Source of the DNA: Escherichia coli
GTDB taxonomy: Bacteria; Pseudomonadota; Gammaproteobacteria; Enterobacterales; Enterobacteriaceae
Strand: one strand, 5' to 3'
NCBI RefSeq assembly: GCF_003334305.1
Contig: NZ_QOWS01000003.1
DNA length: 64,000 nt
Shown: in pieces, positions 2,469 through 52,662 of the stretch
How the letters are laid out: each line of letters opens with the position of its first letter
Position numbering within the stretch: position 1 is the stretch's first letter
Translations under genes and position numbers: made by a program
The notes under the pieces: model-generated
Told to the model about the DNA's origin: nothing
The model's database searches: none
The model's input: the letters and a program-made list of their open reading frames with translations, nothing else

Positions 2469-2647
2469 AAAACTGGCGCGACCTGCCGCGCTATAAACTA
2501 AAAAATTACACAAAATCATTCGCACTGCATCGAGACGGAAAGTGAATGAGGGCCGGGGAGCGTACTCGCAGTACGTGACCCGGGCGAATGAGCGTAGCCG
2601 TCGATGAGGCAGTGTGAAGGATGAAGTGTAAATAAAAAAGGAAGTGA

Positions 2648-3037
<390 letters not shown>

Positions 3038-3081
3038 TTCCTCATTTCCCTGTTGCCTGCACTCAGGTAACAGGGAACTTA

Positions 3082-3546: not shown

Positions 3547-3574
3547 TATTTCGCCTGGCTTATCAGTCCGCGTG

Positions 3575-3681
<107 letters not shown>

Positions 3682-3703
3682 TTTGCTTAGCGCAGAGTGA
3701 AGA

Positions 3704-34213: not shown

Positions 34214-34298
34214 GCCGAAGTGGCGAAATCGGTAGACGCAGTTGATTCAAAATCAACCGTAGAAATACGTGCCGGTTCGAGTCCGGCCTTCGGCACCA
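34214..34298 (+). tRNA. leuX: tRNA-Leu (anticodon CAA)
   Basis: 85-nt sequence GCCGAAGTGGCGAAATCGGTAGACGCAGTTGATTCAAAATCAACC...GGTTCGAGTCCGGCCTTCGGCACCA with long variable arm and encoded CCA. Confidence 0.92.
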
Positions 34299-34499: not shown

Positions 34500-35764
34500 A
34501 TGGCTCTGAGTGATGTGAAGGTCCGTTCGGCTAAGCCGGAAGCAAAAGCCTATAAACTTACTGACGGTGAAGGCATGGTTTTGTTGGTCACCCTAATGGC
34601 TCCAAATACTGGCGACTTCGTTATCGTTTTGGCGGTAAGGAGAAGATGCTGGCGCTGGGGAAATACCCTGAAGTCTCGCTGGTCGATGCCAGAGGTCGCC
34701 GGGATGAAGCCCGTAAGTTGTTAGCTAACGGCGTCGATCCTAGTGAGAACAAGAAAGCTGTTAAGGTAGAGCATGAGCAAGAGGTGATAACGTTTGAAGT
34801 GGTAGCCAGAGAGTGGCACGCCAGCAATCAGAAGTGGTCTGCATCGCATAGCGCTCGTGTATTGAAAAGCCTCGAAGATAATCTCTTTGCTGCTATCGGT
34901 AAGCGGAACATTGCTGATCTGAAGACTCGGGATCTGCTTGTCCCCATCAAAGCGGTGGAGTCGTCTGGGCGTCTCGAAGTCGCTGCTCGTTTGCAGCAGC
35001 ATACTACCGCGATTATACGCTTTGCTGTACACAGTGGATTAATCGACTACAACCCCGCTCAAGAGATTGCTGGTGCGGTTGCTACGGCGAAAAGACAGCA
35101 TCGTGCTGCTCTGGAACTTAACCGCATTCCTGAATTGCTTCAACGCATCTATCACTATTCTGGCAGGCCGTTAACCCGACTGGCGGTTGAACTCACATTG
35201 TTAGTTTTCATCCGTTCAAGCGAGTTGCGTTTTGCTCGCTGGTCAGAAGTTGATTTTGATACTGCCATGTGGACGATTCCGGGAGAACGTGAGCCACTGG
35301 AGGGAGTTAAGCATTCTCAGCGTGGTTCGAAGATGCGGACTCCACATCTTGTACCCTTATCTCGACAAGCTCTCACCATTCTGGAAAAAATCAAAAGCAT
35401 GAGTGGAAACCGTGAGCTGATCTTCGTTGGTGATCACGATCCGCGTAAGCCAATGAGTGAGAATACGCTTAACAAGGCCTTGCGAGTGATGGGCTATGAC
35501 ACGAAAACGGAAGTGTGTGGACATGGTTTCAGGACGATGGCGTGTAGTTCTTTGATTGAATCGGGATTGTGGTCGAGGGATGCAGTAGAGCGGCAGATGA
35601 GTCATCAGGAACGTAGCTCAGTACGGGCGGCTTATATCCATAAGGCGGAACATCTTGGGGAGCGAATGTTGATGCTGCAGTGGTGGGCTGATTATCTGGA
35701 TGCGAATAGAATGGCGGCTATCACTCCATTTGACTATGCAAAGATTAATAGTTCTTTTCGATAA
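34500..35764 (+). pseudogene. P4-type tyrosine integrase, frameshifted near the N-terminus
   Basis: N-terminal MALSDVKVRSAKPEAKAYKLTDGEGMVLLVT is in frame 3 and the rest (from ...YRFGGKEKMLALGKYPEVSLVDAR) is in frame 2; join is at a CCC run near 34591-34593; C-terminal catalytic region (HGFR...R...Y) is intact. Confidence 0.75.
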
Positions 35765-35965: not shown

Positions 35966-37435
35966 TCAAATAACTCCAAGCTTTGCATACAATTCTTTTT
36001 TCTCTTTCATGCTGTTATCCAATGGTGCTACTCGCAATGCCGCTTTCAAATAAGCCGCAGCACCAGAGTAATCACGCATTTGCTCGCAAACTAAAATGAG
36101 TTGGCTTAACACATGGAACTTCATTGGAGTTGTTTGGTTTACTTTCTCCAATAGTACTCTTGCTTCAGAATATTTCGCTTCAAGGCCAAGGATAGATGAT
36201 TCTAAATACATGGTGGCCGCGTTTTCTGCTTCAGCTTGCTTTCGTTGCAACAGCCAGAAATTTGCTTGACTGATATTGCGTAACTGTAGGTTTGCCTTAA
36301 CTATCAACTCGAACAAAGCTGCTGGTTGAGTCAATTTACCCTCAAGTAAGATCGCTTTATTATCTTCTACAACTTTTTCAAAGTCGAATAAGCGATTGGC
36401 GCGATACAAGGCAATAAGTTGCTGATGTAAAGCTTGTAGATCTTTACTGCGGCTATACTCCTGCGACGCTAATTGAGCAGCTTTTTGGTAAGATTGATCG
36501 GACATTGCTTCAAGTACCGCACTTGACCAGTCCTGAGCAGGTTTAGTTTGAAAAACGGGAGCAATAGCACCAACTTTTAATTGCTTAGTGGCAGCAGAAT
36601 CAAATGCATGAATTAAGTCGGAAATAGTGGAAAAGCGATCCTCCGCTCGTTTTTGTAAACAAGTAAGAACCACTTGTTCCAGGTCCGTATGAATAGAGCT
36701 ATTAATCTCTGTCGGAAGCTTGAAAGGTGCGTGGCGCTGAACTTGTGCTGGCGTATCATGGGGCAGCTTTCCTGTCAGCAGCTGGTATAGCAAAACACCT
36801 AAGCTATAGATGTCGCCCAATAGTAGCTCTTCCAGGCTGCCTCTACGGCTATCGACGTTGGAGAACTCTGGGGCCGAATACAGCACAGTCCCGCCATTTT
36901 CACGGGTACGAACGTAAATTTCTTCTGGTAAAGCTGAGCTGCCAAAGTCCGTCAACTTCACCAGGTCCCGCTCTCCAACCAAAATGTTATGTGGCTTAAT
37001 ATCTCCATGAGATATTGGTACTGGTAATTCGGCCAAATAATGCACAGCACAGAGCACTTGACGATATATTCTGAACAACCGTTCATAGGTCTGGCCAAAA
37101 TTACGCTGCCTGTCATCGAGCTTTTGCGCCAGGGTTTGGCTGGGAAAATACTCCATTTCAATATAGAACCATTCATTATCTATACGGCCCATATCAAAAA
37201 TTTGCACAATATTTTCGTGCGGCTCGACGTTTAAAAGCTCTTTACCTTCGGCAAGCTGACGGTCTTCCCGAGTAATATCCTTAGGGATTTTTACTGCGAC
37301 AATTTTTCCATCTTTCAGGCGTTCCGCCCGCCATACCCAGCCATGGCTGCCATCACCAAGGCATTCAAGTAACAGGTATTTGTCACCAAGGCGTTTATTC
37401 GTCCCTGGCAAAAAATGTGCTGATTTTATATTCAC
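35966..37435 (-). CDS. Eukaryotic-like (Hanks-type) Ser/Thr protein kinase with helical/TPR-like C-terminal half
   Basis: Gly-rich loop LGDGSHGWVW, VAVK lysine, catalytic loop HGDIKPHNIL, DFG and SAPE motifs; GTG start overlaps the upstream stop (GTGA). Confidence 0.75.
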   Translation of the reverse strand: MNIKSAHFLPGTNKRLGDKYLLLECLGDGSHGWVWRAERLKDGKIVAVKIPKDITREDRQLAEGKELLNVEPHENIVQIFDMGRIDNEWFYIEMEYFPSQTLAQKLDDRQRNFGQTYERLFRIYRQVLCAVHYLAELPVPISHGDIKPHNILVGERDLVKLTDFGSSALPEEIYVRTRENGGTVLYSAPEFSNVDSRRGSLEELLLGDIYSLGVLLYQLLTGKLPHDTPAQVQRHAPFKLPTEINSSIHTDLEQVVLTCLQKRAEDRFSTISDLIHAFDSAATKQLKVGAIAPVFQTKPAQDWSSAVLEAMSDQSYQKAAQLASQEYSRSKDLQALHQQLIALYRANRLFDFEKVVEDNKAILLEGKLTQPAALFELIVKANLQLRNISQANFWLLQRKQAEAENAATMYLESSILGLEAKYSEARVLLEKVNQTTPMKFHVLSQLILVCEQMRDYSGAAAYLKAALRVAPLDNSMKEKKELYAKLGVI

Positions 37436-37974
37436 ATCAACACCTCATAGTGAATTCTGTCCAAAACAATCATGTTCAGGTTTTTGATAAATAAAAAGCG
37501 ACTAAATACCACCTCAACATCAGGAGCGGCGATTACTTGGGTACCCGTGGACGAAGTAAAACCCATACGGCATATGTCTTTCAGTTTTTGAGTATCAGGT
37601 ACACCTACTAAGCCTTGGCTCCAGGCACTGAGGACCAGGGTTTTGGGGCAATGATTCCAGCGCTGTGCTGCTTCCAGTAAGTTTTTTAATTTTTCTTCCA
37701 GCTTTTGCTGCCCCTTCGCTGAACCATCAAAGCGTTCAAATTCGATTAAACACACAGGCGATGCAGAAGATTTATGAAACCAGCCCGAGTCAGAGCGAAT
37801 ATCAGCACCAAATGTCCCTGGAGCCGGGCATTCCACTACCGCCATAAATGACTGTTCATGCCCGAATGTATTCCAAACGCTACAGCCCAGGCTGTGGACC
37901 AATACATCCTGGTCCAATAGCTTACCGCTTGCTAAAAGTGGAAATGTCTCATTTACCCAGGCAACTTCAGGCAT
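37432..37974 (-). CDS. Hypothetical protein (about 180 aa; the listed ORF extends to 38031)
   Basis: ORF translationally coupled between the HerA-like gene and the kinase gene; no motif recognised. Confidence 0.5.
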   Translation of the reverse strand: MPEVAWVNETFPLLASGKLLDQDVLVHSLGCSVWNTFGHEQSFMAVVECPAPGTFGADIRSDSGWFHKSSASPVCLIEFERFDGSAKGQQKLEEKLKNLLEAAQRWNHCPKTLVLSAWSQGLVGVPDTQKLKDICRMGFTSSTGTQVIAAPDVEVVFSRFLFIKNLNMIVLDRIHYEVLM

Positions 37975-37981
37975 AGGCACC

Positions 37982-39667
37982 TTAGCCACTGAAAGAGCCC
38001 CAAACACGCAGTACCTCTGGTGATTCACCACCGTGAATTAATGCCTTACTACCAACTTTAACAAGCAGTGGTGCAGGGATTGAACGACCACACACCAAAG
38101 CTTCACCGGTTGATAAACTCGGGAGTTCCTCCAGATCAGCTTTGCTCACCATATCTGATGCTTTAGCTATAAATCGTTGATCGTCAGGGTTCTTTAAGCG
38201 CATCGTAATTAGCGTATTGCACTGAGAGGTCACATCTGAATCTAATTTCGATGGACGCTGGCTCACAATGCCAAATCCAACGCCAAATTTACGACCTTCA
38301 CCAGCGATCTTTTTAATAATGCGGTGACTGACTGCGTTGCCGCCGGCCGGGGCAAAATTATGACCCTCTTCGTAAATGATAAAGCATGGGCGCAGCGGGT
38401 CCGTTTTGCTCGAGGCTGCTTTTAATATTTCACTAGATAACAGTGCACAAATGACTTGCTTAGCGGTATCACTCAAACCTTGTAAGTCAACAACGACTAA
38501 ACGCCCCTGTTGATTGCTCGGGCGACCCACCATTTTGTAAATATCAGTTGGCTCAGCCATTGTTGCGCTGTAAAAACTTTTAGCTTCATTAAGCACACGT
38601 GAAAGCTTCATCGAGGCGACGGCGGCACTACGGCCTGATAACGCCTTCGCCTCAGCTTCAGAAAGGTCGTCCCACTCTTTTAACTCTTCAATACCATCAC
38701 CTAATAAGAAGCGTAGGCGGTTAATATCTCGTGGCTCAGTCTTATCTGCAGAGCGCCAATAACGAATTGCAACATCGAGTACTCGTTGCTGCGGTTCCGT
38801 TAAGCCAGGTAATATTTCAGCAATATCGTCCATTTCAAAATGGTCAAACTGAAGCGCTAATGGCGTATTCTTACTGGCGTATTTATGTTTAAAAGATTCA
38901 TGCTGCGGCGAGTAAACCTGAATACCTGCACCGGCGGCTTGCAGCTTTTCAAAGGTCTGTTTTATCAGTGGCAGTGCTTCTTGATCACGCTTATCGTCAG
39001 TGGCTTCTAAGAAGCTTGAGAATTGCAGATTACCGCCAGCGAGGGCTTTACCGTATTCACCATGTGGGTCAAATACTACTACCGTACCGTTATTAACCGC
39101 AACTAAACGCTCAATAATGCGGCCAACTGTATAAGACTTACCTGAACCCGTCATTGCCAGAACAGCCAAATGCTCAGTGACCAACTTGTTCACGTCAATA
39201 AAAACAGGAACTGTATTCTCACCTTTGTCGTAGCCTACTAAGTTACCTAAGTGCAAACTGGAGTGTTCATTAAATTCGTAAAAATCACTCAAAAACTGAA
39301 AATCGACGGTTTCAACAGCGGTACCCGGGTTAAGCGGGCGACGTGGAATTTTGATTTGACGAGTAACAGGATCGCGGTAACCAACCAGCTCGACCTGAGC
39401 AAACATATTCTCACCAGTTACATTCGCACCGGGCAAAAGCTCAAGCTCGGTTACACCATCGCCAAAGCCGGCGTTATAGAGCATATTAGTACGGCTTATC
39501 TTGGTCACTCGCCCCAGTACGGCGACTTGCCCCTCATCTTTGCGTTCCTGGTGCATAATGCGTACAAACTCACCACGGCGTACTGAAAACGAGTCTTGTA
39601 CAACCATAGTTAACTGACTGGCATCACCAGTGTTACCGACTAATTTACCTAAAACTTTATAAGCCAT
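37982..39667 (-). CDS. HerA/FtsK-like ATPase
   Basis: Walker A AMTGSGKS, DPHGEY motif, Walker B FIIYEEGHNF, arginine-finger region SQRPSKLD. Confidence 0.75.
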   Translation of the reverse strand: MAYKVLGKLVGNTGDASQLTMVVQDSFSVRRGEFVRIMHQERKDEGQVAVLGRVTKISRTNMLYNAGFGDGVTELELLPGANVTGENMFAQVELVGYRDPVTRQIKIPRRPLNPGTAVETVDFQFLSDFYEFNEHSSLHLGNLVGYDKGENTVPVFIDVNKLVTEHLAVLAMTGSGKSYTVGRIIERLVAVNNGTVVVFDPHGEYGKALAGGNLQFSSFLEATDDKRDQEALPLIKQTFEKLQAAGAGIQVYSPQHESFKHKYASKNTPLALQFDHFEMDDIAEILPGLTEPQQRVLDVAIRYWRSADKTEPRDINRLRFLLGDGIEELKEWDDLSEAEAKALSGRSAAVASMKLSRVLNEAKSFYSATMAEPTDIYKMVGRPSNQQGRLVVVDLQGLSDTAKQVICALLSSEILKAASSKTDPLRPCFIIYEEGHNFAPAGGNAVSHRIIKKIAGEGRKFGVGFGIVSQRPSKLDSDVTSQCNTLITMRLKNPDDQRFIAKASDMVSKADLEELPSLSTGEALVCGRSIPAPLLVKVGSKALIHGGESPEVLRVWGSFSG

Positions 39668-40814: not shown

Positions 40815-40816
40815 GC

Positions 40817-41692
40817 TTATAGCGTTCCTGTGTGTAGCTGCTCGCCAAGTAATGGGGCATAAGCCCAATATTGCGAGGCTTGTAGGCATGTTTTACCGGT
40901 AGCTGTTATGCCCGCGTCGTCGATAAAATCGTGCTGCCGCAACATCTCACCCCGCTTGACAATATCAAGGCTATTAACATCAAACATCAGCTTAACCGCA
41001 TTATGCTCAGACAACGCTTGTAAGTTCATGCCACCGCCAGCGTAGAGTAATAGCAATACAACTAGATCGTGCTTATCTGGCGTGTAGTCAGTTGATGGCG
41101 CTTTAGGTTCGATTATTCGTTCAGCAATGCCTGCATGGTCCACAAACCAATTCAACCAGCTCACCAGGAGCTCACTATGATCGAGTAAAGTCAGCGACCA
41201 CAAAGGTAACGTGGTAAAGGCTAATAGCCCACTGTTGCTGTGTTTTCGTATGTAGCGGGTATGCACTACATCACCGGCCTGGTGCTGGTAGCGATCTGCG
41301 CTGCCAGTAAAGCCAGCAATAGCCTGGTCTGTTTCACTGGCTAGCAAAGCGGTTAGCCCCGGTTCCTGCCCCCTCAAGCTCGCTGGTACTAACTGCCAAT
41401 CCAGTGGATAGGGCAATTGCGCTAATAAGGTAAATTGTTCTGCTTTCAGGTTTATTACCAAAGCGGCACAACCTGCCTGCATAGCCCAGTGATACAGGTG
41501 CTGCATAGTATTAGCGTCAGTCAACTCTTCTGCTTGCACTATTAACAAACCGCTGGCTGGCGGCGAGCTAATCCAATCCTTCATTAAGGGGGTAGCCCCC
41601 GCAACAGTTTGCAAAAAACGGCCTTTACGATTACTGGCCAGTGCCGCAGATAAATAACGACTCATCGCGTCACCTCTACAAACCAGTGGCAA
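40817..41692 (-). CDS. Hypothetical protein (about 290 aa)
   Basis: Coupled ORF overlapping the stop of the 1428-aa gene; no motif recognised. Confidence 0.5.
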   Translation of the reverse strand: MPLVCRGDAMSRYLSAALASNRKGRFLQTVAGATPLMKDWISSPPASGLLIVQAEELTDANTMQHLYHWAMQAGCAALVINLKAEQFTLLAQLPYPLDWQLVPASLRGQEPGLTALLASETDQAIAGFTGSADRYQHQAGDVVHTRYIRKHSNSGLLAFTTLPLWSLTLLDHSELLVSWLNWFVDHAGIAERIIEPKAPSTDYTPDKHDLVVLLLLYAGGGMNLQALSEHNAVKLMFDVNSLDIVKRGEMLRQHDFIDDAGITATGKTCLQASQYWAYAPLLGEQLHTGTL

Positions 41693-44600
41693 AGGTAAGG
41701 CGCATTTTTACAATGCCTTTGTCTACAAGTCCTTTCTGTTGCTCAGGTGTTAACACGGGTTCCTGATTTTGGCTCAAAGCCTTATAAATCGGTTGCCAAT
41801 CCGCCAGTGTTAAGCCTGTATCATTTAATATTTGCTCACCTTGACTCTGCCATTTGGCCTGGGTGCTTTCACACACCTGTTGAAGTTCTCTGACACCCAA
41901 ATTGCTCACATCCTCCAGAGTCAACGCTGCTGGTTCCGCTTGCTTTTGAGAAGCCAATAGCGGTTTTAATAACGGCAGCCAGCTGTTTACCTGTGCGATG
42001 GAGTTGCGTCTTACTTGGTTTAGACGCTCTTCAATTTTAAGTAGCTGGCCTTGAATCGGTGTAAGTTGACCGCGTGCCGGTTTTAAAAGCTCTTCTGGTA
42101 AATCCCGTAACGATGAAAACTGCCCATTGCGCAAACTGTTTTGCATACTTTGACGCTTGCTCTCTGCATCACTGGGGAGATCGGCAATAGCATCTTCAAT
42201 GAGCTGTAATTTCATTACCAGTTTTGGTAGCTCTGCAATGTCATCGGCGAACTGATACTCAGCCGTGGCGCTACTAAGCCATTCTTGCAGTTGTTGTGCA
42301 CGTAGTTTTTGCTCTGTGAGGTTATTAACCAGCTTACTAAATCGTTCTTTGCAGTTGCGGTAGCTGGACAAAATATGCCCCTGAATCTCCGCTATCGGCA
42401 ACTGTTGATCATTGTGCAGGTTTAAACCCACTTCTTGCGCTAAGGCTGAAAGCTTGTCATGCGCTCTACCTAAATCGAGTTTACGCAGGTAATGCAGTAA
42501 GGTATCGCTATCTGCTTGCTGCTCTTTTCGGCCAGTGGCACTGCTGGTATCGTCTTTTAACGCTCCATCTAAAATATGACCTATGGTGCGCAGCGTGTTG
42601 GTGTACAGACGTTTCGGAAAATTCGTCAGCGGGGCACACTCTGTTTCAACATCTATGATTAAATCAACGAGTCGGTTGTTGATACGCTCAGCGCTGCACT
42701 CAACAAACTCGGCAAATAAACAGGCCTGTTCAATCCGTTGATAAAGCGAGGTCGTTTTGTCTTCTAAGCTGAGAATATGGGCATCTTTTAGCATAGGCCT
42801 GGAACTATTAAGCGGTTTAACCTTTGCTACCAGCTCCAGCACTTCAGCGCGTTTGTGGATAAGCCCTGCCAATACTTTCGTGTCGTTGGCCTCGACCATA
42901 TCAGCCAATTGTTCTTCTTGCTGTTTGAGCACGTTAAATAGCGATTGTGCTTTTTCCAGCTGCTCTTTAGCTTCCACGGTGACGAAACCCAGCTTATTTT
43001 TACCCAGTGGCGCGAACATTTCATTAATGCGTGCATAACCATACACGCGGCTCATGACTTCCACATTGGCTGCATAGCTGCCCATATCGTTACCACGGAA
43101 CCAGTTTTGCGCTTCTCTAATGGCATTTTCTAAGCGGGAGCGCGGGTAGTGCTCCCAAATTGCCTGTTTTTCTGTTGGATTGGTTAAAGTGAGTAAGTTC
43201 AGCTCTCCACACCACCACATCCAGTCATTAAACACGCCTTTGGCGGTAACACTCGTTTCAGCCACATAGGCGAAATAAAACTGTTGCTTAAAGCCTTCGA
43301 ATTGCCACTTGTGCTTTTTATTAGGGTGAGCAATACGGGCTAAAAATAATGGGATCTGCGCCTGGCTTCGCTGCACATTATTAAGTTCAGTAAATAGCCC
43401 GGCATGTTCATCGGCAGTGTAACCTTTGGCAATATAGCTGCCCGGCACCTTAAGTTTATCCAACAAGCTGCTCAGCTCATTCACTGGCACGCCGTGTTGC
43501 TGCTGTAAATCGAGAATGCCATTTAACTCAGGGTGAGCAATGGCCAGCTGATACCAGCCTTTAAACAACAGGTCTCGGTCATTCGGTGATAATTTACCAT
43601 CTACCTTTAACGGCCAGGCAATTAAACCGCGCTGCTGCAAACGCTGGCGCCACTTGTGAATGGCATCCGTGGCAAAGGTTGTCAGGGCATGCAGCTTGTT
43701 TTTGAATTTCGCGGTAAAGCTGTCGGCAGTTAAATTCACGCCGTGCAACTGACATGCTGCCAAACTTAAGCCAATACGCTCTAACTGGTCTGCTTCGCTT
43801 GGGTTGACATAATGCAGCAGTATCGCATCACGCAACTCATTTCTTTCATCCAGTCGGCTGTATTGCTCCATGAGATGTGCAGAAGCAGTTAACGCTAATA
43901 CTGGCGTGCGACCATTTTGGTGGCTGTGGTTTGCCGCAAAGGTGTGAAGATTGTTCAGCTCAATTAGGTTGCTGACCCAGGCAAACAAGGCTTTACCTTC
44001 TGGGTGAAGCTTAAATCCATCCAGGGTAAGTAAACCACCCTGGCGGCCACGGGGCTCGGTTAAAATGGCCAAAGGTGCATCGTCGCTGCCCGCTTTATTA
44101 CTCAGCAAGTTTTCATCATAGGTCCAGTTGTTATCAAGTAATCTCACAAAGCCCGTTACACGGGCTAATGCCTTGATGAGCGGCTTCTGGCTACTTTGTT
44201 TGCTAAGTTCACTCATTGCCTGTTCATGAGCGTCGCCCATGGCGGGATCTTTAAAAATCAGTGAGTTTTGCTGGGCACTGCGATAGCGCAAATCCAGGCG
44301 CAGTAACATCGCCACACTGGGGCCAATATGCGTTGCTTCGCTGGCGTCCAGTTCGGTAGTTTCACCCACTAGCTTGTGCCATAAGGCATCGGCAGCGAAT
44401 TCAATCGCTGGGTGGTCATACAGCAAGCTGAGTAAGTATTTAAACTCACCTTTTGACAGAGGTAGTAATACCGCGCCTTTATCGCCGCTTGCGGCTTGTT
44501 CTTTAATTGAAAAAGTACGCAGGTTATCCAGCAAAGTATCTAAGTTCAGCGCTTGATCTACTGCAGGGTAGTACCATTCATCTTTATCGCGGCGGAATTT

Positions 44601-45962
44601 GGCTTGCTCCAGGGCTTGTCGGCACTGTAGGCGGTCAATGCTCAGTTTGCGGTAATGAGCGGCTATGGGTTCCAGATCTTCGTTTTTCAGCGCCAGCAAT
44701 TCTGTGGCATAGCCCATTTCAGCTAAGCGCACGGGTAATTGGCCGTAGAGCAAACTACGACATTCGGTCAATAGTGCCTGGTCGCGAGTTTGAATGCCTT
44801 CTATCGCGCCTTTATCCAGCACATGCCTGGCTACGCGGCCAGAGCCTGCCAGCACAGCTTCAAATAAATCGCCCACATCCTTGATACTGCGGCCTGCTTG
44901 TTGGTATTGGCTCAGCACTGCATCCACATTAGCCATGACCACGTTAAACCAACCGAAGTTGGCACCACTCATGGCGTATGCAGCTTCCACTAAACCAGCA
45001 GGGTAATTAAAACCCAGCTTGCCGTCTTTTAAGAGGCTTGCCACATAGTCTGATACATCGGCAAAGGCATTATGCTCAAGTTCCACTAACTCAAAGCGGC
45101 GTGCGACCGATTGAATTTCGCGCAATTGCTGGCCAAGCAGTGGTGAACACAGCGCTACATAGCGCAACCATGGAAGTTTACGGCGAGGGTCTTCCTCTTT
45201 AATTGCTTTACCAATCAGGCGAATGGCCTGGCCATCGAGGCGTTTATTTTGTTCATCTTCCAGGCCAAAGGTGGCGGCTTCTGCAACGGTTTCCAGCTCA
45301 TCCAGCACCACCAACATATACTGCACGCCAAAGCTCTTTAATACTTTATAGGCGGCTTGCACCAAACTGACTACCAGCGTTTGGTCAGTATAGAGGTCTT
45401 CTTCGCTGTGGTTGGCGTTCAGCTGTAAGGCATCTGCTAACAGTTCAGATTTAAAGCCAAATGGCATTAAGCGTTCATAGGCTTGTTTGGCAATTTCACT
45501 TTGAATCGATCCATCAAAGGTTTGGGTGGCCAGTGGTAATAGCGCCTGATATAAACCAAAAGCAAACCAGTTATCCGAGTTTTGATAATCTGATGCCACT
45601 TGCGAGTAGCGAATGTAGAGCGCCAGGTATTTGTCTTGCGTGTCGCGATTAAACAGCTGCTTATCGTGCAGTTGGCCTTGTTCGTCGCGGACAAACCAGC
45701 CCCTTGAACAGTCGTTAATTTGTGCAACCAATTCATGGCCTAAACGTGATTTACCCCGACCCCATTCGGCTTCGACGGCAAACACATGGGCAAAGCGATC
45801 ATCGTCGTGATCCACCGTATGCAAAAAGGTTTGAAAGCGTTTAAAAAAGCGGCTCTGGCCCACTAACGGGTCGCGAGGTGGATAATCTGATACGCCCGTC
45901 GCCGCCCAGCGATGTTGTTTTGCCAGGCTATCAACCATCTGTTCGTTTAATTCAAAACTCAT
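41676..45962 (-). CDS. Large (1428 aa) P-loop NTPase-domain protein
   Basis: Walker A-like VEAEWGRGKS and Walker B-like YMLVVLDELE in the N-terminal 250 aa; the long remainder has no recognisable motifs; ATGA overlap with the upstream gene. Confidence 0.6.
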   Translation of the reverse strand: MSFELNEQMVDSLAKQHRWAATGVSDYPPRDPLVGQSRFFKRFQTFLHTVDHDDDRFAHVFAVEAEWGRGKSRLGHELVAQINDCSRGWFVRDEQGQLHDKQLFNRDTQDKYLALYIRYSQVASDYQNSDNWFAFGLYQALLPLATQTFDGSIQSEIAKQAYERLMPFGFKSELLADALQLNANHSEEDLYTDQTLVVSLVQAAYKVLKSFGVQYMLVVLDELETVAEAATFGLEDEQNKRLDGQAIRLIGKAIKEEDPRRKLPWLRYVALCSPLLGQQLREIQSVARRFELVELEHNAFADVSDYVASLLKDGKLGFNYPAGLVEAAYAMSGANFGWFNVVMANVDAVLSQYQQAGRSIKDVGDLFEAVLAGSGRVARHVLDKGAIEGIQTRDQALLTECRSLLYGQLPVRLAEMGYATELLALKNEDLEPIAAHYRKLSIDRLQCRQALEQAKFRRDKDEWYYPAVDQALNLDTLLDNLRTFSIKEQAASGDKGAVLLPLSKGEFKYLLSLLYDHPAIEFAADALWHKLVGETTELDASEATHIGPSVAMLLRLDLRYRSAQQNSLIFKDPAMGDAHEQAMSELSKQSSQKPLIKALARVTGFVRLLDNNWTYDENLLSNKAGSDDAPLAILTEPRGRQGGLLTLDGFKLHPEGKALFAWVSNLIELNNLHTFAANHSHQNGRTPVLALTASAHLMEQYSRLDERNELRDAILLHYVNPSEADQLERIGLSLAACQLHGVNLTADSFTAKFKNKLHALTTFATDAIHKWRQRLQQRGLIAWPLKVDGKLSPNDRDLLFKGWYQLAIAHPELNGILDLQQQHGVPVNELSSLLDKLKVPGSYIAKGYTADEHAGLFTELNNVQRSQAQIPLFLARIAHPNKKHKWQFEGFKQQFYFAYVAETSVTAKGVFNDWMWWCGELNLLTLTNPTEKQAIWEHYPRSRLENAIREAQNWFRGNDMGSYAANVEVMSRVYGYARINEMFAPLGKNKLGFVTVEAKEQLEKAQSLFNVLKQQEEQLADMVEANDTKVLAGLIHKRAEVLELVAKVKPLNSSRPMLKDAHILSLEDKTTSLYQRIEQACLFAEFVECSAERINNRLVDLIIDVETECAPLTNFPKRLYTNTLRTIGHILDGALKDDTSSATGRKEQQADSDTLLHYLRKLDLGRAHDKLSALAQEVGLNLHNDQQLPIAEIQGHILSSYRNCKERFSKLVNNLTEQKLRAQQLQEWLSSATAEYQFADDIAELPKLVMKLQLIEDAIADLPSDAESKRQSMQNSLRNGQFSSLRDLPEELLKPARGQLTPIQGQLLKIEERLNQVRRNSIAQVNSWLPLLKPLLASQKQAEPAALTLEDVSNLGVRELQQVCESTQAKWQSQGEQILNDTGLTLADWQPIYKALSQNQEPVLTPEQQKGLVDKGIVKMRLTFATGL

Positions 45963-47260
45963 AACGACGATCCTTGAAGGTTTATTCTATTGGCGGCGCG
46001 TTTTTTATTGGCATAGCAGTTTTGCGCCAGTTGCTTAATGGTCCGTTGTAACGTTTGGCTTTTGTAGCCAAATAGTGGTGCTAACGGCAGGCTATAACAG
46101 GCATCGCTGAAGCTTGTATGAATTCGATATTGGCCGGCCTCTCCACGACCCGCCTCGGTAAATTGCCAGATTTTTTTTGCCAACAATTCGGCAATGAATG
46201 AGCTCAGGACGCGGTTTAGGCGGTTGATGCTTTCCGTGTTCGCATCGAGTGCCGGGTAGAGGGGTATATTGAGCTCACCGAGCAGAAGCACAAGAAACTC
46301 GGCCAAACTACCCAGACTCACCTCATCACCTTCAATGCCCTGTACCGCCACATTTATTTGACCGGGGGCAAAGGCATTTTGCCCGGCAGGTAAGGTGAGC
46401 AACAAACCGCCACGTTGCTCGGCAGCCCAGGCATCTTGCACAAAGATAATTAGACTGAGTAAAAATAACCAGGGCTGTTGGGCGAATAGCTCGGTAAGCG
46501 GCATGTTGTCATGACCCGAGCGGGACACCAATAACCAATCGGCATTGGGTTTAAGGTTATGTTCATCAAGCAAGGTATTAGGGAGTGCTAACAACCGCCC
46601 ACTACACCAGTTATTTGTCAGTTGTTTTGCGGTGACATCCACCGCTTGTATAGGTGCCGGTGGTTCATTTTGTTCGCTCACGGTAAACAAGGTATAGCTG
46701 GTGCGCAAAATACGACATAGCGCGGGAATGGCAGCATTGTCGTTTAGGCTATGACCGAGCAAATCGCGTTCGGTTTGTGCCAGAGGGCCGGCAATGATTT
46801 GCGGCGTGGTGGCAGTGCTTTCCAGCTGGGCTAAGACCCATTCACTGGCATTGCCCAGTTGCTGAATGAGTTTAACCAATACCATTGTGTCACTCATCGT
46901 GCCTGCTTCCTGGCAGCGAGCGGCGGCTAAATTGATCCAATGTTGGCGAACATCTGGGTTTAAGCCCAACAACGCTAATTGCCATTCACCTGACTGGCTT
47001 AAATCGTTAAAGGCATCAAGCAATGGTGCAGTGAGGCTAAAGGCGCTAACGATATCCGTTTCAGCGTCGTTCTTTTTCGGCTGTATTATTGGTTGTAGCA
47101 GTGACCTAAGGGCAGGCACAGCCGCCAATAACAATGCTGCTTTGTTGGCGTTCAAACCACCTTGTTGCCAAAGCTGCAGGCAGAGGTTAAGTGCCGCTTC
47201 GCTATTTACGGGGTCGTTATATTGCCTGGTTGTACTGCTGTCCGTGCCCCTTGTCTCCAT
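45959..47260 (-). CDS. Hypothetical protein (433 aa)
   Basis: Coupled ORF between the HsdS-like gene and the 1428-aa gene; no motif recognised. Confidence 0.5.
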   Translation of the reverse strand: METRGTDSSTTRQYNDPVNSEAALNLCLQLWQQGGLNANKAALLLAAVPALRSLLQPIIQPKKNDAETDIVSAFSLTAPLLDAFNDLSQSGEWQLALLGLNPDVRQHWINLAAARCQEAGTMSDTMVLVKLIQQLGNASEWVLAQLESTATTPQIIAGPLAQTERDLLGHSLNDNAAIPALCRILRTSYTLFTVSEQNEPPAPIQAVDVTAKQLTNNWCSGRLLALPNTLLDEHNLKPNADWLLVSRSGHDNMPLTELFAQQPWLFLLSLIIFVQDAWAAEQRGGLLLTLPAGQNAFAPGQINVAVQGIEGDEVSLGSLAEFLVLLLGELNIPLYPALDANTESINRLNRVLSSFIAELLAKKIWQFTEAGRGEAGQYRIHTSFSDACYSLPLAPLFGYKSQTLQRTIKQLAQNCYANKKRAANRINLQGSSL

Positions 47261-47262
47261 CT

Positions 47263-48741
47263 TTACTCTTCAGCCTCCGCTTGCGCCGCCTCTTCCAGCA
47301 AACTGTATAACTCATCCACATCGCTAAATAGCGGTGTGGCACCTTCAATGGCATAACCCTCAGCGCTCAGTTTGCTTAAAATCGCTTGATCAAAGCTGCT
47401 GTCGCCATCTTCCAGGGCTTGTTGGGCCTGGATTAGTTGTTGCTCAGTCAGTTGGCCTTCGATTAATGACTCAACTAGAGTTTTGGCAGATGCTGTTAAC
47501 TTTTTTGCATATGCTGCCGTAGTAACGGCTAGTCTCAGCTTACTTCCTATTTCTCTATTCTTCGCTATGTCAATCGGAATCAGAATATTTAACAGGTTTT
47601 CTGAAGTCACTTTTGGTACAACGCTGCCAGTAGTCACACCTTTCCAACACGGAAAGTGTTTATCCAGGAACCTACAAATAGACTCAATATCATATTCATC
47701 TTTTACCTTTAAAACCCAAACATGGTTGTTTGCCCAAAACTTTCCATCAGCTACATTTGCACAGCCAATAGAGCCATCTTGCGCAATAATCAGATATTTA
47801 CCGTTGAAATTGAATTCGGTATGAGTATCTATTGGACCTGATGCGCCATAGTAAAAATATGGTCCGGGTACTCTGTCTTCCGATTTAATAGGGTCGCCAC
47901 ATTTGCATTTACTAATGAAATTAGATAGTTTTGATGAATTCCTAAAGGTCATTTGACTATCGGCCGCACGTGCAAACTCAGGAGCTAAAGACACTGCTGA
48001 TAATACCTGTTGTTTCATTCTTCTAGGTTTCAATGTTAATGAATCAACAAGGTTGAAGTGAAATAAATCTTTAATTTTTCTATCAGCCATTCCTTCAAGT
48101 CGTTTCGCCCAAGCGCGTAACTGCTCGGCTTGGCGAACTTTATCCCCGATGTATTTTTGGGCTAGAGGTAAAACTTTAGGAACCGCTAGCGAGCGGACAC
48201 TTGGGAAGTCAATTGCAGGGCGAGTTGCGCCATATGCTTCCTTCCAGATCGCTACTTGTCCGGTTTTGCTATTCAAATATGCCACCAAGAAATAGGCGTC
48301 AACTTTTTTGGGATCGGGCTTGAATCTGACTGAGTGCTGACTAATGTTGGCCGGTAGATGTTTAGCTGACACAACAGCCGATTTACCAAATTTTGCACCA
48401 GTAATCGTAAGTAAAACGTCGCCATCCACTAATCGGCTGCGCTTTAATTTTTCATCATCTTCATCGTTAATAAAAACAGCTTCTTCAGCTTGCAAGAACA
48501 TTTCTTCAACTTCAGAAGTGCGATAAAACTTAACACGGCCTTTTTCTAAATAATTTGCTCCTAAAGGTGTTGCGCCACTAGCCACCCCGCGCTTTGAATC
48601 AATTACCGCTTCTAGGGGCAAAGCACCTAGGTTGTCTTTTATCTTATTAATTTGTCTTTCAAATCGCGGTTGATAGTGCCAAGGATCAATCCGCCTTTCA
48701 GACAATTGTTCGGGTGTTCTTTTAAAAATAGTTGCCATCAC
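47263..48741 (-). CDS. hsdS: Type I restriction-modification specificity subunit (HsdS-like, two target-recognition domains)
   Basis: Two TRD-like halves (RIDPWHYQP...GDVLLTITGAKFGKSAVV; VPGPYFYYGASGPIDT...) separated by a conserved helical spacer (LAVPKVLPLAQKYIGDKVRQAEQL) with a C-terminal helical region; 4-nt overlap with the MTase gene. Confidence 0.7.
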   Translation of the reverse strand: MMATIFKRTPEQLSERRIDPWHYQPRFERQINKIKDNLGALPLEAVIDSKRGVASGATPLGANYLEKGRVKFYRTSEVEEMFLQAEEAVFINDEDDEKLKRSRLVDGDVLLTITGAKFGKSAVVSAKHLPANISQHSVRFKPDPKKVDAYFLVAYLNSKTGQVAIWKEAYGATRPAIDFPSVRSLAVPKVLPLAQKYIGDKVRQAEQLRAWAKRLEGMADRKIKDLFHFNLVDSLTLKPRRMKQQVLSAVSLAPEFARAADSQMTFRNSSKLSNFISKCKCGDPIKSEDRVPGPYFYYGASGPIDTHTEFNFNGKYLIIAQDGSIGCANVADGKFWANNHVWVLKVKDEYDIESICRFLDKHFPCWKGVTTGSVVPKVTSENLLNILIPIDIAKNREIGSKLRLAVTTAAYAKKLTASAKTLVESLIEGQLTEQQLIQAQQALEDGDSSFDQAILSKLSAEGYAIEGATPLFSDVDELYSLLEEAAQAEAEE

Positions 48742-50885
48742 TCACCCCGCTTATAAGCCGATACAATCTTATCCAGATCGTTTGCGACACCGGCGTTATA
48801 GTCTTCGATATTGTTTTTCACCACATAACCCAATGTTTCAGCCACTGCCATAAACACGTCGGTTTGTGGCTCGGGCAAAAATTGCTCTGGCTGGTTGGGG
48901 TTAGCATGGCGTTTTTGTAAATACAAAATCGAGGTTTTGGCCCCCGTACCGGAGAGTTTAAAGCAGTCGCTCGGCAATGAAATTACTGCTTTTACAATAG
49001 CTTTACCGCCAACAAACTCGCCGGTTTTTTCGTCTTTTTTCCCCATAATGTACTCACGGACATAACGGTCGCCGGAGTTACATAAAATACCATCAGGCAG
49101 CACTATTAACAGGCGGCCACCGGGTTTAAGCAGTTGCAGGCAGCGGTCGATAAAAAGTACTGCTGGGTCAATAGTGGCACCTACCGGTTGCCAGTTGCCC
49201 TTGCTATCGGGCTTGCTGCCCAGCGCGAGCCCTGCGGTTGTAGGCTGCAGGCTGTAAAACGGCTTTTTATCAGTCCCGCCCGTTCTGCGCAAATCGGTAC
49301 GGTAGCCCGCCCATTTAGGCTCGCCGTTTTCATCCAGCTCTAAATCACCGATATCCTGCCACTTCATTTTCACGTGGTCATACCAGGCGTTGTAGCTATC
49401 AACGACTTTTTTGGTCGGACGAAAACCACCGAGCACTTGCTCCATATTGGCTTCGTAATTGGCTTTTGAGTTTTGACCATTTTTGCCTTTATCAAATTTA
49501 GGCGTACCGAACGGCGGGTTGGTGCAAATCAGGTCAAAGCTATTCGGCTTCAGAGCGTTAGTAGTGAGTGAGTTGTCGGTATAAAAAATCTGCGCTTTGG
49601 GGGCACCTTGCAATGCCATATTCACGCGGGCCAGCATTACCATGCGTGGTGCAGCATCGGCACCGGTAAATGCACAGTCGCGTAATTTTTGTTTCAATGA
49701 TTCTTTTTTATCGTCGGCCAGCACCAGCTTAAAATCGATCCATTTATCAATCTGGCTTAACGCCACCGAGCCAAAACCAAAGGAGCCACAGGTGGGGTCG
49801 CAGAAACGAAAATCGCCATTGGCTAAGCGCGATCGCATTTCATCGTCATCGTCGATGTCGTGCATAGCAATTTCTAGCATGGCCTGTTTTACTGGGTTTG
49901 GTGTTAAATAAACGCCAAGGCCACCTTTGGATTCAAAGTTAGCGCGTAGGAATACATCAAACACTCTGCCTAGTAAATCTCCTGACACATCAGCCAACGT
50001 GCCGTGTTCTTTCGCGATTTTACCGTCGTTGGTTTTTACCGGACCCAGGTTTTGTATTGCTTCCAGCAAATCCTGATAGTTTTTCGCAACAGACAGTCGC
50101 AGGTGTGTTTCTTTACTAAAGATGGGGTTACGTGAGCCATCATCTGAGATCACAACGTAGTTTTCGTGGCTTTTAAATTCCTCAAAGGCGGCTTTGATTT
50201 GGGCAACGGCTTTATCGCCGTGGCTCTCCACATATTGCCAATCAAAGACATCACGAAAACGCAGGGTATTTCCCTCATCATCTTTAAAGGTAAGGTCTTC
50301 ATCGTGATGCAGGCGGAAAGTTTCTAAAAACAGAAGCTTAGCTACTTCTTCAATAATGTCGTTCTTGTCGTTTACCTTGTCTTTGGTAACGCGATAAACA
50401 TTTTCATGGAAGGCATCAAATCGCTGCATTAAGCGTGTATAAACACGCATCGACCAGCGAAAGGTTGGATCACGCTCCATGCGATCAAAGCTACGTAATT
50501 CTTCCAGACCAGGCAGGGTATCTGCACCGTGGGTACCGTCAGATCCATCGGCACCGAACAAGGCCAAAATACGTTGGTTCAAGCCATCGTCCACAACGGC
50601 ATATACTGGCCAGTCACCTTCGATATCACTTAACAGCTGATAGGCTAAATCATCAAACTTTGCAGTGTCAGCGGCGTATTCCCAATGGCCTTCTGTCAGC
50701 GCAATCAACATGACTGGTGGCGTTAAGTTGCCTTCAACCAGGCCTTGAATGAGACCAGCCTTGGCGAATTCATGCTCGGGTAATTCGACCAATGGCTGAG
50801 TAAACTCGGAGTGCTGTTTGACCAGTTTATTGAACAGTGCTTCTAGCTGCTGTTGCGGGTCTTGTTTTTTTGCTTCTTTTGCCAT
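48738..50885 (-). CDS. hsdM: N6-adenine DNA methyltransferase, type I HsdM-like (715 aa)
   Basis: AdoMet motif I FRFCDPTCGSFGF, motif IV DLICTNPPFG, motif X region GVYLTPNPVKQAMLEI, C-terminal GRLLIVLPDGIL. Confidence 0.75.
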   Translation of the reverse strand: MAKEAKKQDPQQQLEALFNKLVKQHSEFTQPLVELPEHEFAKAGLIQGLVEGNLTPPVMLIALTEGHWEYAADTAKFDDLAYQLLSDIEGDWPVYAVVDDGLNQRILALFGADGSDGTHGADTLPGLEELRSFDRMERDPTFRWSMRVYTRLMQRFDAFHENVYRVTKDKVNDKNDIIEEVAKLLFLETFRLHHDEDLTFKDDEGNTLRFRDVFDWQYVESHGDKAVAQIKAAFEEFKSHENYVVISDDGSRNPIFSKETHLRLSVAKNYQDLLEAIQNLGPVKTNDGKIAKEHGTLADVSGDLLGRVFDVFLRANFESKGGLGVYLTPNPVKQAMLEIAMHDIDDDDEMRSRLANGDFRFCDPTCGSFGFGSVALSQIDKWIDFKLVLADDKKESLKQKLRDCAFTGADAAPRMVMLARVNMALQGAPKAQIFYTDNSLTTNALKPNSFDLICTNPPFGTPKFDKGKNGQNSKANYEANMEQVLGGFRPTKKVVDSYNAWYDHVKMKWQDIGDLELDENGEPKWAGYRTDLRRTGGTDKKPFYSLQPTTAGLALGSKPDSKGNWQPVGATIDPAVLFIDRCLQLLKPGGRLLIVLPDGILCNSGDRYVREYIMGKKDEKTGEFVGGKAIVKAVISLPSDCFKLSGTGAKTSILYLQKRHANPNQPEQFLPEPQTDVFMAVAETLGYVVKNNIEDYNAGVANDLDKIVSAYKRGE

Positions 50886-50935: not shown

Positions 50936-51322
50936 CTAATTTATCAGTACCAGCAAGGGGCCTTTAATCTCTATCTGCGCGTGCTTCTGTGCCAGTTTGC
51001 GTATCTGCTGTTCACTGGTCGTAATACCAGCAGGGAGCTTTTTCAGTACTTGTGCAAGGGGCATGCGCCCACCAGCTTGATGCAACAATGATACCAAATG
51101 TGCCGCGATATCAGGTATAACCTGGTACGTTGCCGTTGTGGGCCCTTTTAGATGATTACTTTGAGGCAATGAGGCAAGCCATAGCGAAACTTGAGACTGG
51201 CTAAAGCCAAGTGTTTGCCAGAGGGTTTGGTTCTCATTAAATACAACGGCGGCGCTTCTGGGAGTTGCTGTTTGCTGAGTTATTAGTTGTTCCAGGCTTT
51301 GTCGCTGGTATTCATGGGTCAT
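50936..51322 (-). CDS. Hypothetical protein (128 aa), third gene of the McrBC-like module
   Basis: ORF whose start overlaps the McrC-like stop by 4 nt; no motif recognised. Confidence 0.45.
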   Translation of the reverse strand: MTHEYQRQSLEQLITQQTATPRSAAVVFNENQTLWQTLGFSQSQVSLWLASLPQSNHLKGPTTATYQVIPDIAAHLVSLLHQAGGRMPLAQVLKKLPAGITTSEQQIRKLAQKHAQIEIKGPLLVLIN

Positions 51323-52662
51323 CTCATGCCTCCACTATAGGATACTGAAGCAGCCATCCGATCCAGTTTGGGGCTCATTGTACAGGACACGTCATTCGGC
51401 CACATCATCCTCTCACCGCGTTTTGCCATTATCCGGTATGGCACAACCCATAATTTTAAAGTCTCCGAGAAAGCAAAATGCTGCGCTATAGGTTGGCTAA
51501 AGTCATCATGCGCAGGGTAAATCAGATACATTTCGCCATTCCCACCAAGATATTTTTGTCCGTAGGCAAACATTTGATAGAAGTCAGCTTGTGCCAGTCC
51601 ATAGAGTGATTTTGTCTGCTGGCTGCTATTCACCAGCTTCCATTTTGTATCCATCACCATTTCGGTTTGAACTGGTTTGTGTGATTGAATCAGCAAGTCG
51701 GGGCGAAGCTTAAAGCAATCTTTAAGTCCATGCTTTACCAAAGAATAAGTTGCTGCTTGAGGTAAAACTTTGAGGTGAGGTGGTAACTCGTCGGGTAGGG
51801 TCTGTGCCACAAAGGATTCAAATACCGCTTCCATAGGGAACAAAAGTGATATCGCTTTGGTGTTTCCCTGCAAAGCACTCGGGCTCATTCCCCTCAGGAT
51901 CAATTGCGCCCATGCCATTGGCTCGTTGTAATGAGCCATACCACGCTCGAGGCGTAAGTTGTTTATATCACGTTCAATATCCCGGCTAAGTGGAATACCG
52001 TCAAACGCAAAACGCAGTTCGTAAAGCCAGCGTTGATTATCTGATGACAGCTGCAGACTAAGAAGCTTATCTAGTGCGGAGTGTAAGAGCCGATTGGCTG
52101 CACAATCAGGCATGTAGTCATCATAATCGACACAAAACTTATGGCGATTCACCGCGTTATGTCGCAGCTGTGCAGAAAGCATCAGCTTGCCCTTCATAAA
52201 AGCCAGATTACCTTGCTTGCTCACATAGTCGGAGCGTAAACCCTGTTTAAGCAATTGGCTGACGCTATGCAAAAACTGGTTAATAAAAATCTCAAGCAAA
52301 GGCATACGCTGAGCCTGAAGAGTGGCTTGCTGGGTTTGAATATGTCGGAACCCAGGCAGATGGCTTAGCATCGTCAGCAATGTTTGACGTGCATTAGCCG
52401 CTGTGAGGTTTTTACCAACCTTGGGCAGTATCTCAAGCTGGAAACCGTGAGGTGTTGAAAGCATCCCTGCGTAGTTTTGAACCTGAAGCAATTTGAAGCC
52501 TGAGCGAGAGGTGAGTTTGAGGAACTGGCTCCCTTGATTACTTGCCAGGCTAAGCGCTTCTAAATAATTAAAGACCTGTGGAGGCACCGGTTTTGCGCCA
52601 ACTGAAGCCGCTTTTCCACTCCCCAAGAGGTCATATTCAAAAACGGAGATAACTTCACCCAT
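51319..52662 (-). CDS. McrC-like endonuclease subunit (PD-(D/E)xK)
   Basis: C-terminal RPDLLIQ...VMDTKWK...QADFYQMFAYGQKY resembles the McrC catalytic core; 8-nt overlap with the McrB-like gene. Confidence 0.65.
   Translation of the reverse strand: MGEVISVFEYDLLGSGKAASVGAKPVPPQVFNYLEALSLASNQGSQFLKLTSRSGFKLLQVQNYAGMLSTPHGFQLEILPKVGKNLTAANARQTLLTMLSHLPGFRHIQTQQATLQAQRMPLLEIFINQFLHSVSQLLKQGLRSDYVSKQGNLAFMKGKLMLSAQLRHNAVNRHKFCVDYDDYMPDCAANRLLHSALDKLLSLQLSSDNQRWLYELRFAFDGIPLSRDIERDINNLRLERGMAHYNEPMAWAQLILRGMSPSALQGNTKAISLLFPMEAVFESFVAQTLPDELPPHLKVLPQAATYSLVKHGLKDCFKLRPDLLIQSHKPVQTEMVMDTKWKLVNSSQQTKSLYGLAQADFYQMFAYGQKYLGGNGEMYLIYPAHDDFSQPIAQHFAFSETLKLWVVPYRIMAKRGERMMWPNDVSCTMSPKLDRMAASVSYSGGMR

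Follow-up and report, generated by a model that had tools for sequence, protein, structure and literature searches.

Methyltransferase and specificity genes within a ten-gene operon

The stretch analysed here, hereafter the window, comprises 64,000 nucleotides of the Escherichia coli chromosome (contig NZ_QOWS01000003.1) and carries the adjacent genes of a Type I-like DNA methyltransferase (M) and of an HsdS-like specificity subunit (S). Such pairs, when found without HsdR, are usually dismissed as orphans or degraded systems, and the original prediction for this DNA had indeed proposed either an orphan modification module or restriction by something unusual, namely an upstream McrBC-like pair or the downstream ATPases. 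M and S are the second and third of ten co-oriented minus-strand genes, running from 51322 to 35966 with overlaps or gaps of no more than 50 nt, in the order p128, M, S, p433, p1428, p291, p410, HerA, p199 and Ser/Thr kinase. We conclude that M and S are probably the modification and recognition arm of a single-operon defence system of ten genes resembling restriction-modification (R-M) systems, the E. coli orthologue of the madl2-madl11 genes of a candidate named 'MADS-like' (bioRxiv 10.1101/2023.03.30.534895). Hence the original prediction covered two of the ten genes of the unit and missed its link to the methylation-associated defence system (MADS) and to the MADS-like candidate. The ten genes are as follows.

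50936..51322, minus strand: p128, small protein, first gene of the cassette (madl2 equivalent), lying immediately 5' of M in 65 out of 80 related loci
48738..50885, minus strand: M, N6-adenine DNA methyltransferase of 715 residues with a Type I HsdM-like catalytic core (madl3 equivalent)
47263..48741, minus strand: S, HsdS-like specificity subunit of 492 residues with two target recognition domains (TRDs), PADLOC Specificity_I (madl4 equivalent)
45959..47260, minus strand: p433 (madl5 equivalent)
41676..45962, minus strand: p1428, giant P-loop NTPase with invariant Walker motifs, signature protein of the cassette (madl6 equivalent)
40817..41692, minus strand: p291 (madl7 equivalent); the RefSeq start at 41666 gives 282 residues
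39657..40889, minus strand: p410, HerA partner with a predicted NurA (RNase H-like) fold (madl8 equivalent); the RefSeq start at 40815 gives 385 residues
37982..39667, minus strand: HerA/FtsK-class hexameric DNA translocase ATPase, PADLOC HerA (madl9 equivalent)
37432..38031, minus strand: p199, small protein with a predicted PD-(D/E)xK nuclease fold like those of BamHI, OkrAI and NucC (madl10 equivalent)
35966..37435, minus strand: Ser/Thr protein kinase with a C-terminal helical region resembling tetratricopeptide repeats, PADLOC mad6, last gene of the operon (madl11 equivalent)

Between 37000 and 55000 the sequence of the window is shared at 100% identity by strain A7 and numerous other strains. 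Promoters and terminators were also scanned for in the operon, with counts at or below shuffled expectation.

Features of the M and S proteins

As predicted, M displays the motifs of an adenine methyltransferase. Motif I is FCDPTCGSFGFG, with the core DPTCGSFGF, motif IV reads TNPPFG (NPPF), and the PADLOC Type I methyltransferase model PDLC03023 spans the full protein with 1577 bits. The Pfam N6_Mtase domain is split in two, at residues 301-474 and 577-689. The unusual length of M, which had been remarked upon as well, is explained by an insert of ~ 100 residues inside N6_Mtase and by 300 N-terminal residues without any domain; HsdM_N was not detected in M with Pfam. The two-TRD architecture foreseen for S is borne out by the PADLOC Type I specificity model PDLC03120, which covers residues 14-492 (E-value 7.7e-164). 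The open reading frames (ORFs) of M and S overlap by 4 nt, as claimed, and by 1 nt if the RefSeq ATG start of S is used.

Hence the locus holds a gamma-class N6-adenine methyltransferase and an HsdS with two TRDs, both of which belong to a Type I R-M system. The third component, an HsdR combining a superfamily 2 (SF2) helicase with a PD-(D/E)xK nuclease, was found in none of the island ORFs when these were scanned with PADLOC, NCBIfam and Pfam, the HsdR, ResIII and SF2 models all remaining without a match. Nor is an HsdR listed in the RefSeq annotation of the identical A7 region (window 1-64000), in which the remaining entries are only housekeeping genes, tRNA-Leu, a frameshifted integrase, nanCMS and fim. 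The reported absence of HsdR from the window therefore stands.

Conservation, synteny and co-evolution of the cassette

The p1428 protein was used as the marker for locus retrieval, and a scan across species, with one genome taken for each, recovered 77 loci. In total p1428 has 467 homologous clusters, all labelled 'hypothetical' and none with a Pfam domain. The loci span Gamma-, Beta- and Alphaproteobacteria, Cyanobacteria, Planctomycetota, Acidobacteriota, Verrucomicrobiota, Fibrobacterota, Clostridia, Chloroflexota, Myxococcota and Desulfobacterota. In Desulfonema, Pseudomonas veronii and Nitrosomonas, the same neighbourhood from the small protein to the kinase is found without McrBC.

Orthology of the ten families was established by iterative hidden Markov model (HMM) searches of all ORFs of 80 related loci. 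The same gene order is seen in ~ 70 of them, in more than ten phyla. Individual families were recovered 65 times for p128, 69 for M, 74 for S and for p433, 71 for p291 and for the kinase, and 72 for p410, HerA and p199. Where the genes are present their order is invariant, and contig ends account for most absences. In the three most divergent loci (L080-L082, from Chloroflexi and Desulfobacteraceae metagenome-assembled genomes) the iterative HMMs did not detect p128, p433 or p291.

Among the 61 complete loci, the pairwise identities of M follow those of the downstream proteins closely, with Spearman correlations that range from 0.86 to 0.94 and amount to 0.94 for p1428, 0.91 for both p410 and the kinase, 0.90 for HerA and 0.88 for p199. 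The correlation is only ~ 0.6 for S, a pattern that would be expected if TRDs swap while the remainder is inherited as a block. Within E. coli, M and S were found in 263 of 5426 complete genomes (~ 4-5%), and the full 18-kb stretch is covered to at least 80% in 207 genomes. Among the ~ 260 carriers, S falls into coverage classes of 100, 84, 68 and 65%, with 97-99% identity elsewhere, and these classes reflect the replacement of one or two TRD-sized blocks.

These observations bear directly on the two possibilities first raised for M and S. M and S do not appear to be orphans, because they are conserved in a fixed order and co-evolve with the downstream genes; indeed, their strict co-occurrence with seven downstream genes contradicts an orphan module. 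The part of the proposal that survives is the one that looked to the downstream ATPases for an unusual source of restriction, since the seven genes keep a fixed order across phyla and co-evolve with M. The part that looked to McrBC did not hold up, as the pair accompanies the cassette in only five of the 80 related loci.

Two loci deserve a separate mention. In Vibrio mexicanus (L044), M, p1428 and HerA are each broken into two ORFs, which suggests a copy in decay; the genes directly 5' of p128 (1445-4707) encode a RecQ/DpdF-like helicase and a DprA-like protein. In Pseudomonas aeruginosa CP006984.1 (L085, 5034-7183), nine of the ten genes are intact, but the methyltransferase is called at 323 residues, versus 707 in L084. 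This may be a naturally methyltransferase-defective copy, for which toxicity would be expected if the restriction arm were active without methylation.

Downstream proteins: motor, nuclease folds, NTPase and kinase

No other protein of the cassette is as well conserved as HerA, whose pairwise identities average 75% across phyla. It matches PADLOC HerA (1.2e-56) and mad8 (6.6e-26), its matches to the NCBIfam HerA models fall below cut-off, and its homologues carry Pfam DUF87. This HerA/FtsK-class ATPase adjoins p410, whose predicted structure has a NurA fold, the two genes thus standing next to each other as in HerA-NurA pairs. In all 29 p410 sequences the beta1 position is Ala, Ser, Gly or Val, and D112, D171 and H315 are conserved.

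The other protein for which a predicted structure was made, p199, has a BamHI-like PD-(D/E)xK fold, with an alpha-beta-beta-beta-alpha-beta core and acidic residues on strands 2 and 3 that are invariant across the family. On the strength of this model, p199 is the best candidate for the DNA-cleaving subunit. The fold assignments yield candidate residues of catalytic type, namely E67, D81, E97 and E99 in p199 and D112, D171 and H315 in p410. The residue numbers of p199 minus 19 correspond to RefSeq numbering, in which a start at 37975 gives 180 residues.

The giant p1428 displays a Walker A motif GRGKS at residues 68-72 and a Walker B motif VVLDELE at 218-224, both invariant, followed by a long helical C-terminal half. 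An SMC/Rad50-like protein was considered and ruled out, since Walker B at 218-224 lies next to Walker A. The KAP_NTPase signal in p1428 is weak, being obtained for 14 of 30 members at E ≤ 0.1 with a best value of 2e-4. The family is a closed one: an N-terminal profile retrieved, among 1.84 billion representative proteins, 182 clusters at 50% identity belonging to its own family only, and this search gave no bridge to BrxC, KAP or DptH. Relatives of p1428 in the PDB were not found by sequence either.

The kinase finds its best PADLOC match in mad6 (1.2e-45), scores 116.9 bits against NCBIfam MAD6 (cut-off 460) and also shows a weak PglW-like match (9.8e-20). Given that the motifs VAVK, HGDIKPHN and DFG are retained, it is apparently active as a Ser/Thr kinase.

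For p433, p291, p410, p1428, p199 and p128, concatenated queries gave no Pfam domain at E ≤ 0.001, KAP_NTPase in p1428 being the only hint. These six families found nothing usable in PADLOC or NCBIfam at E ≤ 10 or in PHROGs at E ≤ 1, and when the PDB was searched with profiles of the family alignments, nothing came up beyond coiled-coil or noise matches. More specifically, p128 is without a match in Pfam, PADLOC, NCBIfam and PDB, p433 in the same four and in PHROGs, and for p291 neither the family models nor the PDB gave a significant match.

The variable first slot and the island context

Outside the ten genes, the island and its borders hold the following features.

52655-54730, minus strand: McrB-like protein, AAA_5 3.4e-11 and NCBIfam McrB 3.2e-43, both below cut-off
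51319-52662, minus strand: McrC-like protein, McrBC PF10117, 2.2e-95
54900..55829, minus strand: stand-alone phosphorothioate-DNA-binding HNH restriction endonuclease outside the cassette, NCBIfam PT-DNA_restrict 436.8 bits against a cut-off of 180
34214-34298, plus strand: tRNA-Leu, from the RefSeq annotation of the identical A7 region
34500-35764, plus strand: frameshifted tyrosine integrase, from the same annotation

The upstream McrBC-like pair put forward by the original prediction is real. By its sequence matches it would comprise a McrB AAA+ GTPase and a McrC PD-(D/E)xK subunit, and in E. coli the start of p128 overlaps the stop of McrC by 4 nt. Among the 80 related loci, McrBC was found in five, four from Enterobacterales with the pair 5' of the cassette as in E. 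coli, and one from Fibrobacter; the upstream arrangement recurs in Erwinia, Rosenbergiella, Ewingella and Pantoea. In the Fibrobacter metagenome-assembled genome (L056, ~ 20000-23462) the McrB/McrC pair lies 3' of the kinase, at the opposite end from Enterobacterales. Because it is rare in related loci and its slot is filled otherwise elsewhere, the pair is an accessory acquisition rather than a restriction partner, a Type IV module that in Enterobacterales has become joined to the operon at its 5' end.

Indeed, the slot directly 5' of p128 holds a second S-like gene in 38 loci (for example L020:3248-4711, L022:2753-4252 and L067:2787-4094). This gene is full-length, has two TRDs, often overlaps the start of p128 and shows no BLAST similarity to the M-linked S of the same locus; it is missing from E. 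coli. In nine loci the slot is occupied by a helix-turn-helix (HTH) protein of the MAD1-type excisionase family, and the one from P. veronii, the only one of the nine scanned with NCBIfam, scores above the MAD1 cut-off. A WYL/BrxR regulator fills the slot in P. aeruginosa and in Nitrosomonas.

The tRNA-Leu and the integrase mark the insertion site of the island, which is a leuX island; no attR copy of the 3' end of the tRNA-Leu was found within the window. Taken as a whole, the tRNA-Leu island reads as a stack of putative defence modules, in which the McrBC-like pair and the phosphorothioate-dependent HNH enzyme would be Type IV modules separate from the operon. No homologue of the HNH enzyme was found in any of the related loci. 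Beside its gene lies a partial HNH endonuclease fragment (~ 55873-55977), followed in A7 by a truncated nanS, and these fragments at the right edge of the island look like remnants of earlier content.

In distant hosts the cassette has other defence-like neighbours, such as a 787-residue SIR2_2 protein 5' of the cassette in P. veronii (L004:1116-3479), and an AAA_15/AAA_21 ATPase with a protein of more than 1500 residues 3' of it in Desulfonema (L003:20099-24311). A second HerA-related gene of the window, unrelated to the cassette, is the housekeeping gene yjgR (31367-32869) just outside the island, whose product has a C-terminal domain resembling HerA. Further away, the G+C content falls to 0.37 between 18000 and 24000, versus ~ 0.52 in the flanks, and this stretch includes, between tabA and argF, a 'DNA-binding protein' pseudogene (18619-20208) that is frameshifted and interrupted by an internal stop.

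Proposed mechanism and alternative explanations

By analogy with Type I R-M and with the genetics of MADS, we propose that M and S would form a Type I-style methyltransferase marking host DNA with N6-methyladenine at a bipartite site, and that the same M-S core, retained in a restriction complex, would recognise the unmethylated site on incoming DNA. The signal would then be relayed to the downstream proteins that replace HsdR, namely p1428, HerA with p410, and p199. Unmethylated sites might thereby assemble or activate a HerA-p410 translocation module, with p199 most likely making the cuts and p410 possibly contributing. The kinase, p128, p433 and p291 would regulate or scaffold the complex, and p1428 could likewise sense, scaffold or regulate. 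Methylation-dependent discrimination and anti-phage activity are both part of this proposal.

A more specific proposal, which we put forward tentatively and with rather less than an even prospect of being right, is that of a distinct ATP-dependent restriction class. M-S would here license a hexameric HerA pump, capped by a catalytically altered NurA-fold gate, to draw in unmethylated DNA, which a dedicated BamHI-type mini-nuclease would cut, and p1428 and the kinase would gate the process. If this is true, a solution to restriction that does without HsdR has been maintained in more than ten phyla of bacteria as a block of ten genes.

Several points weigh against the assignment of M and S to a ten-gene defence system. 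Four of the ten proteins (p128, p433, p291 and most of p1428) are without an assigned fold or function, and p1428 has no established family relationship. Every member of the p410 family is devoid of the canonical catalytic Asp of beta1, so that p410 may be doubtful as a nuclease. About half of the related loci carry the second S gene absent from E. coli, and recognition may follow a more complex logic than M2S1. Finally, no report of an experiment on the cassette in any organism was found in the literature.

The alternative that fares best is a cassette with no defensive role, which would instead serve a mobile element in addiction or in DNA processing guided by methylation, for example through end resection, maintenance or competitor exclusion. 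HerA-NurA pairs are archaeal DNA end-resection machines, and the fold match of p410 to NurA as well as the position of the operon in an integrase-linked island would suit such a function. However, defence genes flank the cassette (McrBC and the HNH enzyme in E. coli, SIR2_2 in P. veronii), the S subunits diversify as R-M ones do, its four recognisable components have their nearest counterparts in MADS, a defence system validated by experiment, and tblastn with p1428 found no copy on 72,556 plasmids. A non-defensive cassette is in our view unlikely.

It has also to be considered that M and S could be an orphan modification module, serving regulation or protection only, with the downstream genes as an unrelated neighbour. 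Orphan Type I-like methyltransferases do exist, and HsdR is absent here. Nevertheless, in the recovered loci, which were retrieved through p1428, M and S never stand apart from the other eight genes. Given furthermore the fixed order, the overlapping or closely spaced genes and the co-evolution of M with the downstream genes (rho ~ 0.9), we hold an orphan module to be very unlikely.

The upstream McrBC-like pair as restriction partner of M and S has in its favour the common orientation and the 4-nt McrC/p128 overlap, the same arrangement in the four other enterobacterial genera, and the Fibrobacter pair placed after the kinase. It is missing, however, from ~ 75 of the 80 loci that keep M, S and the other eight genes, and its slot is elsewhere taken by an HTH protein, a WYL regulator or a second S gene. 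McrBC systems attack modified, not unmodified, DNA, which agrees with an independent Type IV layer. A partnership appears highly improbable.

A conventional HsdR encoded elsewhere in the genome and acting in trans with M-S is scarcely credible: direct examination covered the 64 kb only, which leaves it some room, but in strain A7, which does not differ from the window across the 18 kb that were compared, the classical immigration-control site of hsd, mcr and mrr genes between yjiS and yjiA (L083, 640000-689000) is devoid of hsdRMS, mcrBC and mrr and is occupied by a penicillin G acylase gene, M is of a different architecture without a detectable HsdM_N, and the cassette kept across phyla offers a built-in alternative.

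The reading of M and S as the recognition arm of a ten-gene defence system has several consequences. A pair that would usually be set aside is here the leading part of a cassette that is both large and strictly conserved, and its carriage by ~ 4-5% of complete E. coli genomes makes it genetically tractable. It would offer a route to learning how a HerA-type motor, and not an SF2 translocase, can be made to respond to methylation status, and a way to assign functions to six families for which Pfam, PADLOC, NCBIfam and PDB sequences give no match. The cassette would also be relevant for phage therapy and for transformation barriers in carrier strains.

Comparison with known systems

The cassette shares with classical Type I R-M systems the gamma-class methyltransferase core with motifs I and IV, a two-TRD S with swappable TRDs and the translational coupling of M and S. 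In contrast, it is without an SF2 helicase-nuclease HsdR and without a detectable HsdM_N, its methyltransferase has an insert and a novel N-terminus, and its candidate motor is a RecA-fold hexameric HerA whereas Type I systems use an SF2 translocase. A classical Type I system was ruled out on account of the missing HsdR.

MADS is an eight-gene operon (mad1-mad8) of P. aeruginosa SMC4386 that protects against four phages, with phage escape data supporting methylation-based discrimination; its specificity gene could be deleted only along with the methyltransferase gene or mad3 (bioRxiv 10.1101/2023.03.30.534895). The cassette has in common with it a Type I-like methyltransferase, an S subunit, a Ser/Thr kinase, a HerA-like ATPase and the lack of HsdR, together with the MAD1-type HTH of many of its relatives. 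The PADLOC mad2, mad5, mad6 and mad8 models match M, S, the kinase and HerA with E-values of 1e-16 to 1e-45, and in NCBIfam M scores 111.6 bits against MAD2 (cut-off 720) and S 90 bits against MAD5 (cut-off 400), with no match to MAD8. The proteins are therefore homologous to MAD2, MAD5, MAD6 and MAD8 yet remain far below the curated NCBIfam cut-offs for equivalogs. MAD3 (ATPase/Toprim), MAD4 (DUF4276) and MAD7 (DptG-like) found no match in the island with PADLOC and NCBIfam (E limit of 10 for the unassigned proteins), nor with Pfam for DUF4276. In place of these three, the cassette has p128, p433, p1428, p291, p410 with its NurA fold and p199 with its nuclease fold, and its gene order differs from that of MADS. 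The locus is thus not MADS, since the defining MAD3, MAD4 and MAD7 are absent and the curated cut-offs are missed.

Membership of DndFGH/DptFGH was likewise ruled out, there being no match to DptG or DptF. With BREX (bacteriophage exclusion) type 2/Pgl, which consists of the PglW kinase, PglX methyltransferase, PglY ATPase and PglZ phosphatase, the cassette shares an adenine methyltransferase, a large P-loop ATPase, a Ser/Thr kinase and the lack of a classical endonuclease partner. It differs in having a Type I-like methyltransferase with a separate S instead of a PglX-type single chain, and no match to PglZ or to PglY/BrxC (DUF499) was obtained with PADLOC, NCBIfam or Pfam in any cassette protein, p1428 included. 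Compared with HerA-NurA pairs, known from archaeal and Deinococcus end resection and from TdpAB defence, the pair of the cassette has the beta1 Asp of p410 replaced by Ala, Ser or Gly, and it is embedded in a methyltransferase operon with a separate PD-(D/E)xK protein.

The closest relative is the MADS-like candidate, an 11-gene system that manual inspection had turned up in ten islands of P. aeruginosa and that was named as such in the supplement of the preprint of Maestri et al. 2023 (bioRxiv 10.1101/2023.03.30.534895). It was described there without experiments, with madl1 as WYL-HTH, madl3 as methyltransferase, madl4 as S, madl6 as ATPase, madl9 as HerA-type helicase/translocase and madl11 as kinase, the others being hypothetical proteins to which no function was given. 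As for later characterisation, this note is all that was found in the literature, and the cassette is described in neither of two large surveys, of the HerA/FtsK 'capture system' and of BREX-related systems (PMC10853773, PMC12839542). In the P. aeruginosa locus of the p1428 homologue, whose cluster shows 56% identity to p1428 of E. coli, a WYL/BrxR gene is followed by exactly the same ten families, with integrases adjacent. Both P. aeruginosa loci, L084 and L085, and the published description agree with the window in gene order, and the likeness holds position by position: small protein, N6-methyltransferase, S, one protein without assignment, ATPase, two more without assignment, HerA, another without assignment, and kinase. 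Hence, as judged from gene order and homology, the E. coli operon is the orthologue of madl2-madl11. It differs in that madl1, the WYL-HTH first gene, is absent, McrC and McrB lying directly 5' of p128 so that the McrBC-like pair is fused in the madl1 slot. While the MADS-like name was already known from the preprint supplement, what is new here is how widespread and how rigid the block of ten genes is, the predicted NurA fold of madl8 and BamHI-type fold of madl10 with their candidate residues, the variable first slot and the accessory nature of McrBC.

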